In this document: positions 9,403 to 57,610 of the stretch, in pieces
Numbering within the stretch: the stretch's first letter is position 1
How the letters are laid out: each line of letters begins with the position of its first letter
Assembly (NCBI GenBank): GCA_963664295.1
Contig: OY760935.1
Coordinates: forward strand, 1,024,001 to 1,088,000
DNA: 64,000 bases
Source: Candidatus Altimarinota bacterium
GTDB lineage: Bacteria > Patescibacteriota > Gracilibacteria > CAIRYL01 > GCA-016699755
Direction of reading: 5' to 3'
Translations under genes and position numbers: made by a program
Notes under the pieces: generated by a model
Seen by the model: the letters and a program-made list of their open reading frames with translations, nothing else
The model's database searches: none
What the model was told of the DNA's origin: nothing

Positions 9403-10694
9403 TAGTTCACAATTGCTTCAAGGGGGCTAATTTTTGCTGATTTACGAGCAGGAAAAAGCGTAGCAACAAAAGAGGCCAAAATCACTACTGCAAAAATCCA
9501 CAAAAATATATTAAGTGATAATGGAAAAAATGTTTCAGGCTTAATAGAAATATCAGGAATTTTACTTAAAATAAAATTATCCAAGACTATACTAAAAAAA
9601 GTACCAATAAATAAACCTAAAAAAGCACCAATAGCACCCAAAATAACACCCTGGGTAATAAAAATAGCAAAAATAGTCCCTTTTGGCGCGCCAATAGAGT
9701 TTAAAATGCCAATAGTCTGCTTTTGTTCAATTACAGAAACAGAAATTAAAGAAAACATAGACAAAAGAGAAACAAAAATAATCAGAGTAGCGGTTAAAAG
9801 CAAAGTCACGCGTAAAGATAAAATTAATGTCAAAATTTCTTCTCCAACTTCACCAAAAGTTTTTGCTTTTAATCCCATAGTAGTAATTTTTTCTTGAAGA
9901 CTTTTAACCTCATCAACATTATTTGCTTCTATATAAGCCTGAGAAAAAGAAGGATTTTCGTTTATTTTTCTTCCTAGTTTTTCAGAAACATCAAAAGCAG
10001 TTTCTATAGGAATAGAAACACCTAAAGGAGGAGCGCGTGGCGAAATAACCTTAATTTGTGCACTTCTGTAAATAGGCTCAGTATCACCGAGAGTAAAAAC
10101 AGTAGATTTACCAAAGATTAATTGAAATCTTTTGTCTTGTAAATTTTCTGCTTTGAGATGTGGTATTTCCTTAACAGTTTCTGCCAAAGAACTATTAAAA
10201 ACATCAATGATGTAGGGAGAAACAGCAATGGGAACCATAATTTCATCTTCACCTCTAATAAATTCTTTAAATTCATCAGGTTGATCAAGTCCAAAAATTT
10301 CTTTATCCACAGCATAAACAGGAGTATCGGTCTCAAAAGTAAAGCCAAACATCCAAACTTTGAGCGAAGATGGATAATCAAGTGTCAAAACACGAGCAAC
10401 ATTTTTAACTTCAGGGAAAGTTTTGATTTCATCAATCGCCTCTTGGTCAAGAGTTTTGCCCTGGTTGATGTCTAAAAAACCCAAAGAAAAATAATCATTA
10501 CTTACGATTAAAGTTTCTGGACTGGTTGTTTCGCGGATTGGTCTTAAAAGAAAATCCTGTATTCCTTCAGAAAAAACAAAAAACAAAAAAAGCACCATTG
10601 TGCCAATTAAAACACTAAAAGAAACCAAAAAATTACGCGTTTTTTTGGCAGAAATTAGCCTTAGTGAAAAATTTAATATATTTAAAAAACTCAT
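9402..10694 (-). CDS. ABC transporter permease, MacB/FtsX family
   Basis: N-terminal TM, periplasmic domain, EQKQTIGILNSIGA and PARKSAKISPLEAI motifs; start placed at MSFLN. Confidence 0.85.
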   Translation of the reverse strand: MSFLNILNFSLRLISAKKTRNFLVSFSVLIGTMVLFLFFVFSEGIQDFLLRPIRETTSPETLIVSNDYFSLGFLDINQGKTLDQEAIDEIKTFPEVKNVARVLTLDYPSSLKVWMFGFTFETDTPVYAVDKEIFGLDQPDEFKEFIRGEDEIMVPIAVSPYIIDVFNSSLAETVKEIPHLKAENLQDKRFQLIFGKSTVFTLGDTEPIYRSAQIKVISPRAPPLGVSIPIETAFDVSEKLGRKINENPSFSQAYIEANNVDEVKSLQEKITTMGLKAKTFGEVGEEILTLILSLRVTLLLTATLIIFVSLLSMFSLISVSVIEQKQTIGILNSIGAPKGTIFAIFITQGVILGAIGAFLGLFIGTFFSIVLDNFILSKIPDISIKPETFFPLSLNIFLWIFAVVILASFVATLFPARKSAKISPLEAIVN

Positions 10695-10802
10695 CTTAGT
10701 TTGTATTTTCTCATTCAAAGCATGCTTTATCAAGAAGAGAACAAAAACTCTTTTCAAATTGGTCAAAAAATGGCAAACTGCCTTAGCAACAAATTATTTT
10801 GT

Positions 10803-10880
10803 GGCGACTGTAGCTCAGTTGGTTAGAGCGCCGGATTGTGGCTCCGGAGGTCGTGGGTTCGAACCCCATCAGTCGCCCCA
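10803..10880 (+). tRNA. tRNA-His(GTG)
   Basis: G-1, acceptor GCGACTG/CAGTCGC, anticodon arm CCGGA-TTGTGGC-TCCGG, GGTTCGAA T-loop, encoded CCA. Confidence 0.97.
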
Positions 10881-11273
10881 TGAATATCTTTAAACATGTG
10901 CCACAATCAAGATTGCGTCTTCGCGGAGCTAGTGGTTATCTACCCCCATCAGTCGCCCCATGAATATCTTTAAACATGTGCCACAATCAAGATTGCGTCT
11001 TCGCGGAGCTAGTGGTTATCTACCCCCATCAGTCGCCCCATGAATATCTTTAAACATGTGCCACAATCAAGATTGCGTCTTCGCGGAGCTAGTGGTTATC
11101 TACCCCCATCAGTCGCCCCATGAATATCTTTAAACATGTGCCACAATCAAGATTGCGTCTTCGCGGAGCTAGTGGTTATCTACCCCCATCAGTCGCCCCA
11201 TGAATATCTTTAAACATGTGCCACAATCAAGATTGCGTCTTCGCGGAGCTAGTGGTTATCTACCCCCATCAGT
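10864..11273 (+). repeat. Tandem array of identical 80-bp units (5 copies, last truncated), each ending in the 3' 17 nt of tRNA-His
   Basis: AGTCGCCCCA recurs at 10871, 10951, 11031, 11111, 11191; array ends at CAGT 11273. Confidence 0.97.
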
Positions 11274-11342
11274 TTTTTGGCTTGCACAGCTGATTAACAG
11301 CCATTAAACTAAAATGCGTTATATTGTTTTTTAAAAACAAAA

Positions 11343-11741
11343 ATGAACAGCAAATCCCCTAACTTAAGAGTGTTATTAGTTTGCAAACAAGAAGAAGAGG
11401 ATTGCTTAAAAACAGAACAAAAAGAACAAGAAACAATAAACCCAATTGAAAAAATAATTGAACAAACACAAGAAATAATGCGAAGTAATACAAAAAGTTT
11501 TCCGCTTGAAATTGGACTTCATTTACACAAAGCAGGGAATGGTTGTTCTGCACAAGATGAACAAAAAATGTTGGAAGAAATTGTCAAATCTCCAGAAAAT
11601 TTAATTTTAATGACAAGAGCAGTAAAATTATCAGAACCTTGGAAAAGTTTGATGAAAAAAAATGTTTTTATGCTTGATGAACTAAGCCCAGTTCATATTA
11701 TGATTATGATTAAGGGCTATCTTGCCTCCATAAGACTTTAA
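11343..11741 (+). CDS. Hypothetical protein
   Basis: 132-aa ORF; upstream TTGCAC-N17-TAAACT at 11282-11310. Confidence 0.55.
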   Translation: MNSKSPNLRVLLVCKQEEEDCLKTEQKEQETINPIEKIIEQTQEIMRSNTKSFPLEIGLHLHKAGNGCSAQDEQKMLEEIVKSPENLILMTRAVKLSEPWKSLMKKNVFMLDELSPVHIMIMIKGYLASIRL

Positions 11742-11798
11742 TTATTATAAAAAACCTTGCTTTTTTTAATAAAAATAATAAAATAATCAAGCTTGTTT

Positions 11799-11875
11799 GG
11801 TCGTATAGCTCAGCTGGTTAGAGCGCTACACTGATAATGTAGAGGTCCCTGGTTCAAGTCCAGGTACGACCACCA
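11799..11875 (+). tRNA. tRNA-Ile(GAT)
   Basis: Acceptor GGTCGTA/TACGACC, anticodon arm CTACA-CTGATAA-TGTAG, CCA. Confidence 0.97.
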
Positions 11876-11899
11876 GAGATTTTTTGATTTGTTTTTACT

Positions 11900-12006
11900 T
11901 GTCATTCTGAACTTGATTCAGAATCTTTTGGTGACATTATTGTCAGCAATTTATTTTATAGCTTAAATAATGTCCAAGGAGATTGCGGGTCAAGCCCGCA
12001 ATGACA
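11900..12006. repeat. Inverted REP-like palindrome doublet (GTCAT...ATGAC class)
   Basis: TGTCATTCTGAA-CTTGA-TTCAGAATC ... GATTGCGGG-TCAAG-CCCGCAATGACA; complementary loops CTTGA/TCAAG and terminal TGTCATT/AATGACA. Confidence 0.75.
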
Positions 12007-43757: not shown

Positions 43758-44146
43758 AGAGCGGGATGCTTATTTTTTCGGAGCTTTGCTCCTCAAAAAC
43801 AAGGCCTTCTGCGCTCGCTCGGAATTTTGCACAAGCGCAAATTCTCTCGCTCGCTTGAGTGTCGAACCCGAGGCTTCTTATCAAGCCACTTCTTTGCCAT
43901 TATTAAAAATTTTGCCCCCATCAGGGCAAACTTTTTAATGGCGGAGAGAGCGGGATGCTTATTTTTTCGGAGCTTTGCTCCTCAAAAACAAGGCCTTCTG
44001 CGCTCGCTCGGAATTTTGCACAAGCGCAAATTCTCTCGCTCGCTTGAGTGTCGAACCCGAGGCTTCGTATCAAGCCACTTCTTTGCCATTATTAAAAATT
44101 TTGCCCCCATCAGGGCAAACTTTTTAATGGCGGAGAGAGCGGGATT
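43758..44146 (-). repeat. Two 189-bp RtT-like units downstream of tRNA-Ser, each carrying a split copy of the tRNA T-arm/3' end
   Basis: TGGCGGAGAGAGCGGGAT at 43939 and 44128; partial end at 43758; units nearly identical. Confidence 0.92.
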
Positions 44147-44220
44147 CGAACCCGCGGATCCGGTATAACCGAATCAACACATTAGCAGTGTGCCGCTTTC
44201 GACCACTCAGCCATCTCTCC
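44128..44220 (-). tRNA. tRNA-Ser(GCT)
   Basis: Reverse complement GGAGAGATGGCTGAGTGG...GCACA-CTGCTAA-TGTGT, long variable arm, GGTTCGAATCC, CCA. Confidence 0.97.
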
Positions 44221-44248
44221 GTAATATTATGTTGTTAATGTTTCATCT

Positions 44249-44383
44249 GCACACTGCTTGTTGCGTGTGCCCCTATCTAGATACACTCAGCCATCTCTCC
44301 GTACTTTGTAAAAATATTAATGTTCTGTTCGGCACACTGCTTGTTGCGTGTGCCCCTATCTAGATACACTCAGCCATCTCTCC
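44249..44383 (-). repeat. Two identical 52-bp repeats upstream of tRNA-Ser containing the tRNA 5' 17 nt, separated by divergent 28-31 bp spacers
   Basis: GCACACTGCTTGTTGCGTGTGCCCCTATCTAGATACACTCAGCCATCTCTCC at 44249-44300 and 44332-44383. Confidence 0.92.
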
Positions 44384-57424: not shown

Positions 57425-57434
57425 TTTAAAAACA

Positions 57435-57459
57435 GTTGTCACAAAGTGACAATTTTTTT
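57435..57459 (+). terminator. Terminator-like hairpin after tRNA-Gln
   Basis: TTGTCAC-AAA-GTGACAA-TTTTTTT. Confidence 0.7.
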
Positions 57460-57466
57460 AAATTAT

Positions 57467-57610
57467 TGTTTAGGTAGGACCGAGAACCTGGTTCGACAGC
57501 TAGGAGCCCGAGTGCAAGTGTATGCTTGCATTAAGCTTGCCGAGGGCGACGACGATGCCTTATTTTGCGAGGTGAAACCGAGCAAAATGAGCATCCTACC
57601 CGGGCAGCCA
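57467..57610 (+). repeat. RtT-like element ending in a duplicate of the tRNA-Gln 3' 18 nt
   Basis: ATCCTACCCGGGCAGCCA at 57407 and 57593 (period 186); GGTTCGA at 57490 followed by a 96-nt structured insert. Confidence 0.88.

Follow-up and report, generated by a model that had tools for sequence, protein, structure and literature searches.

Introduction

Repeats next to tRNA genes of Escherichia coli, the TLRs, were reportedly the subject of earlier papers by Rudd (1999) and by Egan and Landy (1978). According to the available part of a published account, E. coli K-12 carries 22 TLRs, including the tyrT/RttR repeats; they have been known since 1978, and those in tRNA operons have no assigned function (PMC8144298). 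One RNA of the TLR family, RrB, is transcribed and has its 3' end just past its repeated end, and the accessible portion of the same account mentions neither an antisense arm nor mobility (PMC8144298).

Two kinds of GIY-YIG enzyme and one kind of tRNA duplication offer further comparisons. The Ssn proteins are single-domain GIY-YIG enzymes of ∼90 aa flanked by SRM/NTS hairpin repeats, which bind a single-stranded DNA hairpin and cut beside it, and for which an origin from mobile elements was proposed (PMC11893778, sections available). They set a biochemical precedent for single-stranded hairpins as the site of action of a small GIY-YIG enzyme, but have no target-complementary arm in the sections available, and the main text contains neither the word 'tRNA' nor 'tandem', although supplementary motif tables could list tRNA-adjacent families (PMC11893778). 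SegB, a GIY-YIG homing endonuclease of phages T4/T6, cuts within tRNA genes and drives tandem amplification via recombination; it differs from the case described here in being a phage enzyme that cuts double-stranded DNA and amplifies whole genes, with no gene-less cassettes or antisense arm in the part of the source at hand (PMC13096335). In att-site duplications of integrative elements at tRNA genes, a whole and a partial tRNA copy flank an insert and the tRNA is restored (PMC9897764, in part). Such a direct repeat is present at tRNA-His of the genome analysed here; the insert there, however, is 63 bp long, tandem, has an antisense arm and lacks an integrase or cargo.

Here we analyse an array behind the tRNA-His gene of a Candidatus Altimarinota bacterium, whose genome is a single contig of 1.215 Mb with 33.5% GC. 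Coordinates refer to the window, the whole stretch of 64,000 nucleotides that was analysed. By description the array is a TLR, as far as the consulted part of the TLR account allows the comparison: it lies directly downstream of a tRNA gene, in 5.1 copies where TLR loci have 1–5, and it carries an exact copy of the tRNA 3' end, 17 nt long and one short of the 18–19 bp range of TLRs (PMC8144298). The order of parts in TLRs also resembles that of the long cassettes found elsewhere in the present genome. Unlike TLRs, the His unit is shorter, lacks the GAACC..GGTTCG hairpin and has an arm that targets the anticodon loop instead of the T arm, and the present genome contains mirror-image cassettes on the 5' side of tRNA genes. 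In the literature accessible to our searches, which takes in a minority of the subscription papers, we found no description of a covarying antisense arm.

Results

Structure and copy number of the tRNA-His array

A preliminary description of the window had reported five units of 80 bp after tRNA-His, each containing an exact antisense copy of the anticodon loop and closed by the last 17 nt of the tRNA, including CCA. All three points are borne out: the period is 80 bp at 100% identity, the segment GCCACAATC is the reverse complement of positions 10834–10842, and every full unit ends in the tRNA copy (Table 1). A unit consists, in this order, of 19 AT-rich nt, GCCACAATC, AA, a degenerate sense copy of tRNA positions 31–56, six nt, and the 17-nt 3' end with CCA, and carries in this way an interrupted partial copy of the neighbouring tRNA. 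The four full units are identical, and unit five ends after 73 nt. The motif CGGAGC, formerly taken as a complement of the anticodon stem, more probably copies tRNA positions 42–46 in the sense direction, because the tRNA itself contains the palindrome CTCCGGAG and the homologous fMet unit has CGAAGC at the same place. GTGGT is located at 10932–10936 as described, but the GCCAC/GTGGT hairpin that it was thought to close folds no better than shuffles (z +0.42). The same is true of the whole unit (z +1.36 as RNA and +0.88 as DNA).

The arm is complementary to the tRNA-His gene at 9 of 9 positions, and to its own sense arm at only 6 of 8. An exact antisense match of at least 9 nt in the 63-nt interior of the unit has p = 0.004 in 3000 base shuffles; with a wobble-tolerant score the arm reaches p = 0.04 and tRNA-His ranks second among 37 tRNAs. 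Taken alone, the antisense match at the His locus would be modest evidence. The region 10600–11900 contains no terminator-like site, in agreement with the preliminary description, which had seen none between tRNA and array. There is no ORF inside the array in the ORF list, and the only Rfam family at the locus is tRNA. A CRISPR-like pattern of constant repeats and differing spacers is not matched, whole units being identical. Between the array and tRNA-Ile lies a 132-aa ORF (11343–11741) with no significant Pfam match.

Table 1. Features of the tRNA-His array and of sister cassettes, in positions of the window
Feature	Position	Strand	Evidence
Intact tRNA-His(GUG) gene with G-1 and encoded CCA; putative target of the cassette	10803..10880	+	RF00005, 71.4 bits
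Tandem array, 5.1 x 80 bp, 100% identical	10864..11273	+	repeat detection, read depth
Starts of the array units	10881, 10961, 11041, 11121, 11201	+	
AT-rich spacer of unit 1, 19 nt	10881..10899	+	
Antisense arm GCCACAATC, exact complement of tRNA-His 31-39 (anticodon loop); candidate target-reading arm	10900..10908	+	
CAAG loop between antisense and sense arms, also present in the fMet cassette	10908..10911	+	
Degenerate sense copy of tRNA-His 31-56, including GCGGAGC at 10923-10929	10911..10937	+	
Exact 17-nt copy of the tRNA-His 3' end including CCA, repeated in units 2-4	10944..10960	+	
Last copy of the tRNA end, truncated to 10 nt	11264..11273	+	
Sister array upstream of tRNA-Ser(GCU), 80/83-bp units, duplicated tRNA 5' end	44204..44383	-	
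Antisense of 10-12 nt to own anticodon arm in the Ser(GCU) 5' array	44249-44258, 44330-44341	-	
Sister 189-bp x 2.1 cassette downstream of tRNA-Ser(GCU), long type	43758..44145	-	
Sister 186-bp cassette downstream of tRNA-Gln(UUG), long type	57425..57610	+	

In three sequencing runs of one sample the array is collapsed into a contig of 110 nt, with depths of 104, 66.2 and 111.9 against flanking depths of 23.4, 14.6 and 23.5. The resulting ratios of 4.4–4.8 compare with ∼4.75 expected for the His array, and are not those of a single copy. A run from a second study contains an identical 110-nt contig (depth 13.1 vs 2.8). The array and its copy number are real, because the depth ratios fit about five copies and the second study has the same collapsed unit; on the same grounds assembly homogenisation, which had been considered as a cause of the identity, is ruled out.

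Cassettes at other tRNA genes

The His array belongs to a genome-wide set of gene-less cassettes, broader than was seen earlier. Short cassettes bounded by a duplicated 5' or 3' tRNA end occur at 20 of the 37 intact tRNA genes. The count used for antisense scoring is 25. A rule identified 24 of these cassettes; the remaining one, the second at fMet, was entered manually and overlaps the fMet cassette that the rule had picked up. When the duplicated part is left out of the comparison, the own tRNA takes first place as antisense partner for 7 of the 25 (chance ∼0.7) and one of the first two places for 11 (chance ∼1.4); for 14 it comes fourth or lower. When antisense and sense scores are combined for 12 hand-picked short units, the own tRNA comes first in 10.

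The arms sit at the broken end of the partial sense tRNA copy and usually form an imperfect hairpin with it. They target the anticodon arm in the Ser(GCU), Ser(GGA) and fMet cassettes, the D arm in Phe and Glu, and the variable loop and T arm in Met, Ala, Val, Lys and Pro: the antisense is not specific to anticodons. The presence of near-identical cassette cores at five tRNA genes implies that they have moved from one locus to another.

In cassettes of the long type a terminator-like hairpin, common to them, comes first, and the arm follows at 50–70 nt into the unit. In these cassettes (e.g. L179, L182 and L193) a conserved TATAAT/TCTAAT/GACAAT-like word forms the loop between the antisense and sense arms, and a TATAAT-like loop word is also found in the 80-bp Glu unit. 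In the long cassettes this word may be a protein-binding site or an internal −10 box. Its reading as an internal promoter was dropped, as inspection by eye revealed no consistent −35 element.

At tRNA-fMet (L032) four units are stacked on the 5' side, the most distant with a different scaffold, and two different cassettes lie on the 3' side; the stacking is consistent with successive insertion at the tRNA-proximal end. At tRNA-Lys CTT (L183) we observed a further cassette type of ∼220 nt, which has 12 nt of antisense to tRNA positions 17–28, duplicates the tRNA from position 20 on and is nested together with two long cassettes. Downstream of tRNA-Leu GAG (L181:660-1010) there is a perfect 153-bp repeat in 2.3 copies, with stacked hairpins and without a duplicated tRNA end.

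Shared scaffold, exchanged arms and covariation

The 83-bp cassette behind tRNA-fMet has the layout of the His unit, with arms that match fMet instead. In both units antisense arm and sense copy meet at one tRNA position, the former ending and the latter starting there, and the CAAG loop joins the two. Both also share derived changes (TCG for C and CTA for GTC, in the pattern TCGCG-R-AG-CTA-GT-R-G). As a result the His unit contains GC-GGA-GC and the fMet unit GC-GAA-GC, loops of a type known as very stable DNA mini-hairpins. Among 401 genomes the scaffold pattern matches these two loci only. The 5' units of Ser(GCU) and fMet likewise have scaffold words in common and different arms, and a loop motif is common to the Glu and the long cassettes.

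Eleven arms directed at the T arm, from this genome (G000) and from the same-family genome G004, pair with their own tRNA at 12–16 of 17 nt. The own tRNA is strictly the best partner for nine of them, tied for one and beaten for one, in a comparison whose pairing register was set on the own tRNA and favours it. In four orthologous cassette pairs of the two genomes, 4 of the 5 tRNA differences that lie under the arms are compensated, and the exception is at an arm end. The mispairs between arms and tRNAs comprise 10 G.T, 2 A.C and 16 others. The excess of G.T over A.C suggests that the top strand pairs with the top strand, as RNA or single-stranded DNA; this wobble bias may fit RNA at least as well as DNA, and several of the wobbles may have been inherited together.

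At tRNA-Ala(GGC) of G004 (L301) the antisense arm agrees with the tRNA as it is now, not with the older end that was displaced; the sense arm and this displaced 3' end match a different allele. This mismatch of parts suggests that the tRNA was replaced together with part of its cassette.

Distribution in other genomes

The His unit is lineage-restricted. The conservation in relatives looked for by the preliminary description was not found: the unit is absent from the His loci of all 29 relatives, including the orthologous locus of G004. In that genome tRNA-Ile faces tRNA-His (L002), and the gap between them holds a different palindromic repeat, which follows the CCA of several G004 tRNAs.

The strict scaffold pattern has 0 matches in metagenomes, and the relaxed pattern matches the own genome only, among 401. 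A GTDB search for His loci with the antisense octamer returned 110 loci, 34 of which are tRNA-His and none of which has a duplicated 3' end; these look like chance matches, and a lone match of 8–9 nt is weak. The pattern of a repeated His end recovered 58 loci, 47 of them distinct, from metagenomes and viruses, mostly His-Gly tRNA operons or simple repeats. Real His trailer duplications number four (L464, L468, L469 and L492), one of them with an antisense arm. On an unrelated contig from a GC-rich lineage (L469:420-960), a mixed A-B-A-B array of cassettes lies behind tRNA-His, and its 89-bp unit contains the palindrome CCGCC-TGC-GGCGG as well as an antisense arm of 11 nt directed at the T arm.

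Six same-family genomes contain 13 cassettes at 110 tRNA loci, none of them His-like, and the own tRNA ranks first in one of the 13. In five other genomes there are 39 cassettes among 162 tRNAs, and the own tRNA is first in four with the duplicated end excluded. Long cassettes are common in two genomes (G197 and G293), where most rank their own tRNA poorly with the duplicated end excluded; the arm there lies largely over the conserved T loop and the part that is duplicated.

A candidate nuclease

Upstream of tRNA-Pro we found a 321-bp tandem cassette with an 82-aa GIY-YIG gene (PF01541), located behind a partial tRNA copy that is plugged with the palindrome TCCGCC-TTA-GGCGGA. The locus (L031:100-1100, genome 482635-483373) contains two 321-bp units, each with a palindrome-plugged copy of the tRNA 5' end and the 82-aa gene, and besides them an older decayed leader. 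The protein has no NCBIfam match, its nearest solved structures are UPF0213 proteins, and it is 35% identical over 65 aa to the other small GIY-YIG protein of the genome. The gene of the latter (L033:150-700, genome about 622350-622900) has hairpin repeats on either side, which are related to the numerous palindromic repeats, dispersed and in tandem, that the genome contains, and by eye its layout resembles Ssn/SRM.

Relatives of the tRNA-Pro protein occur in 151 of the 301 genomes of the class. At 28 of the best 30 GIY-YIG loci, the own locus included, a whole tRNA lies within 500 bp, and eight amino-acid types are represented. The palindrome type is present in 27 of 29 GIY-YIG/tRNA loci, compared with 3 of 29 controls; among long cassettes without a gene, 8 of 23 have it at their junction, vs 4 of 139 other trailers. 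The patterns behind these counts were written after the data were seen. Palindromes of the CCGCC-n-GGCGG type are present at the tRNA-Pro and tRNA-Arg(GCG) cassettes; the His unit contains none, and the nearest copy is 9.2 kb from tRNA-His. No small GIY-YIG gene lies near the His array. Genome G004 has cassettes and gave no match to the tRNA-Pro nuclease at E <= 1e-8, in a draft genome searched with one query.

The genome has no match to the IS200 (Y1), IS110 or reverse transcriptase families, and its one tyrosine recombinase is 123 kb from the His array. In the search for Y2 transposases the control matched nowhere. Judging from its association with tRNA genes and palindromes, the tRNA-Pro GIY-YIG enzyme likely moves the cassettes in trans. 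Its link to the His unit is by association only, because this unit is without the palindrome and has no nuclease gene nearby.

Arms in E. coli TLRs

We analysed ten TLRs from three K-12 loci (tyrT/tyrV, L497; lys, L498; arg, L499). Four of the ten, at tyrV, tyrT, lysQ and argV, have an arm complementary to their own tRNA (rank 1/42, p <= 0.01), and the other six are below significance. The four arms complement the T arm and the 3' strand of their own tRNA, and at tyr and lysQ they are followed, within the repeat, by GGTT(C/T)G in sense orientation. A profile of 22 long-cassette scaffolds from the present clade has no match in the three E. coli loci. The likeness to TLRs is one of shared anatomy, not of demonstrated homology.

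Discussion

The most probable reading, to which we give about even odds, is that the His array consists of non-autonomous selfish cassettes, whose arm recognises their own tRNA gene and which a GIY-YIG nuclease is predicted to mobilise in trans. This reading builds on the anatomy of the His unit, on the scaffold that it has in common with a cassette of another tRNA carrying matching arms, and on the compensatory changes in orthologous sisters, all of which are directly seen. The cassette would act as a single strand, more probably of DNA than of RNA, whose arm pairs with the tRNA-His gene; a nick by the nuclease followed by repair would insert the cassette, and its own copy of the 3' end would restore the tRNA. 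Because the target is restored each time, insertion could be repeated, and either repeated insertion or unequal exchange between units could build the array. We observed no insertion event and no empty allele of the same species, and found no His-type ortholog in the His loci of relatives, in GTDB, in metagenome and virus scans or among the 401 genomes. Nucleic-acid-guided targeting, with a constant scaffold and exchangeable target-matching segments, is a property of the DNA guides of IS200/IS605 and of the bridge RNA of IS110. In contrast to these systems, the present genome has no such transposase, and the arms here, which correspond to the two strands of a single stretch, form a hairpin. 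The broader proposal, that a constant scaffold with an exchangeable antisense arm defines an undescribed, widespread class in which the arm directs a GIY-YIG protein of ∼80 aa, and that the E. coli TLRs are members or relics of it, is possible, although we consider it somewhat doubtful.

An RNA device kept by the host is unlikely. The trailer would then pair with the pre-tRNA to tune its folding or processing, or cuts at the CCA ends would give RNAs of 80 nt. The regulatory reading in the preliminary description, in which the trailer pairs with its own anticodon, stands in part: the folding model pairs tRNA positions 31–39 with the trailer at a probability of ∼1.0, but 46 of 200 shuffled trailers also pair this stretch above 0.5. 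The tRNA with its trailer folds at −53.3 kcal/mol when free vs −36.4 kcal/mol with the cloverleaf forced, a gap that is overstated by holding the loops open. A host function would fit the lack of a terminator, and the G.T bias and the covariation also fit RNA pairing; the E. coli RNA RrB binds both Hfq and CsrA, and processing occurs at its repeated end, according to the available part of the account (PMC8144298). What such a function does not account for is that the targeted part of the tRNA follows the break point and not function, sister arms being directed at the D or T arm, which speaks against an anticodon-specific regulator. It also leaves unexplained that scaffolds move between tRNA genes and that the unit is absent from the His loci of 29 relatives, and covering the anticodon of the sole tRNA-His would bring no clear benefit. 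A side effect of the array on tRNA-His processing, or the release of 80-nt RNAs, is plausible on the folding model.

We see a low probability for a neutral scar, in which a break in the tRNA gene was followed by fold-back and template switching that made the hairpin and the duplicated end, slippage amplified the unit, and the arm was functionless afterwards. The antisense arms of the His and fMet units do break off at the start of the sense copy, as expected of a snap-back; the array is perfect and confined to its lineage, and the GIY-YIG nuclease SegB drives tandem amplification at tRNA genes, as stated in the part of the source available (PMC13096335). Independent scars, however, would not be expected to have identical derived changes and an identical loop in the His and fMet units, nor a loop motif common to the Glu and the long cassettes, nor 4 of 5 changes compensated; and in the long cassettes the arm lies well inside the unit, behind the shared hairpin.

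The cassettes could also be guided as proposed and be moved by another enzyme, such as an integrase, a Xer recombinase or a lost HUH/IS110 transposase, for which the hairpin, once folded, would serve as a double-stranded copy of its target. Integrons and CTX phage offer examples of recombination on folded single strands, and both the missing GIY-YIG palindrome of the His unit and the presence of cassettes in G004, where no nuclease match was detected, would agree with such an enzyme. We nevertheless consider it improbable, given the lack of any match to Y1, IS110 or reverse transcriptase families in the genome and the distance of its sole tyrosine recombinase from the locus. An assembly artefact or an inflated copy number is extremely improbable: the units are 100% identical and among the listed contigs none crosses the whole array, but the depth ratios fit five copies and the same circular unit was found in the second study.

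If the cassettes are selfish and find their own target, the long-standing puzzle of the tRNA-linked repeats in E. coli would gain an explanation that can be tested, and an arm that matches its own tRNA and covaries with it makes the question of TLR function directly testable in E. coli K-12. If the arm guides the 82-aa nuclease, the two would constitute a very small nucleic-acid-guided targeting system. The selfish-cassette reading, if true, would also explain the duplicated ends at more than half of the tRNA genes of a small genome, which are usually dismissed as prophage scars.
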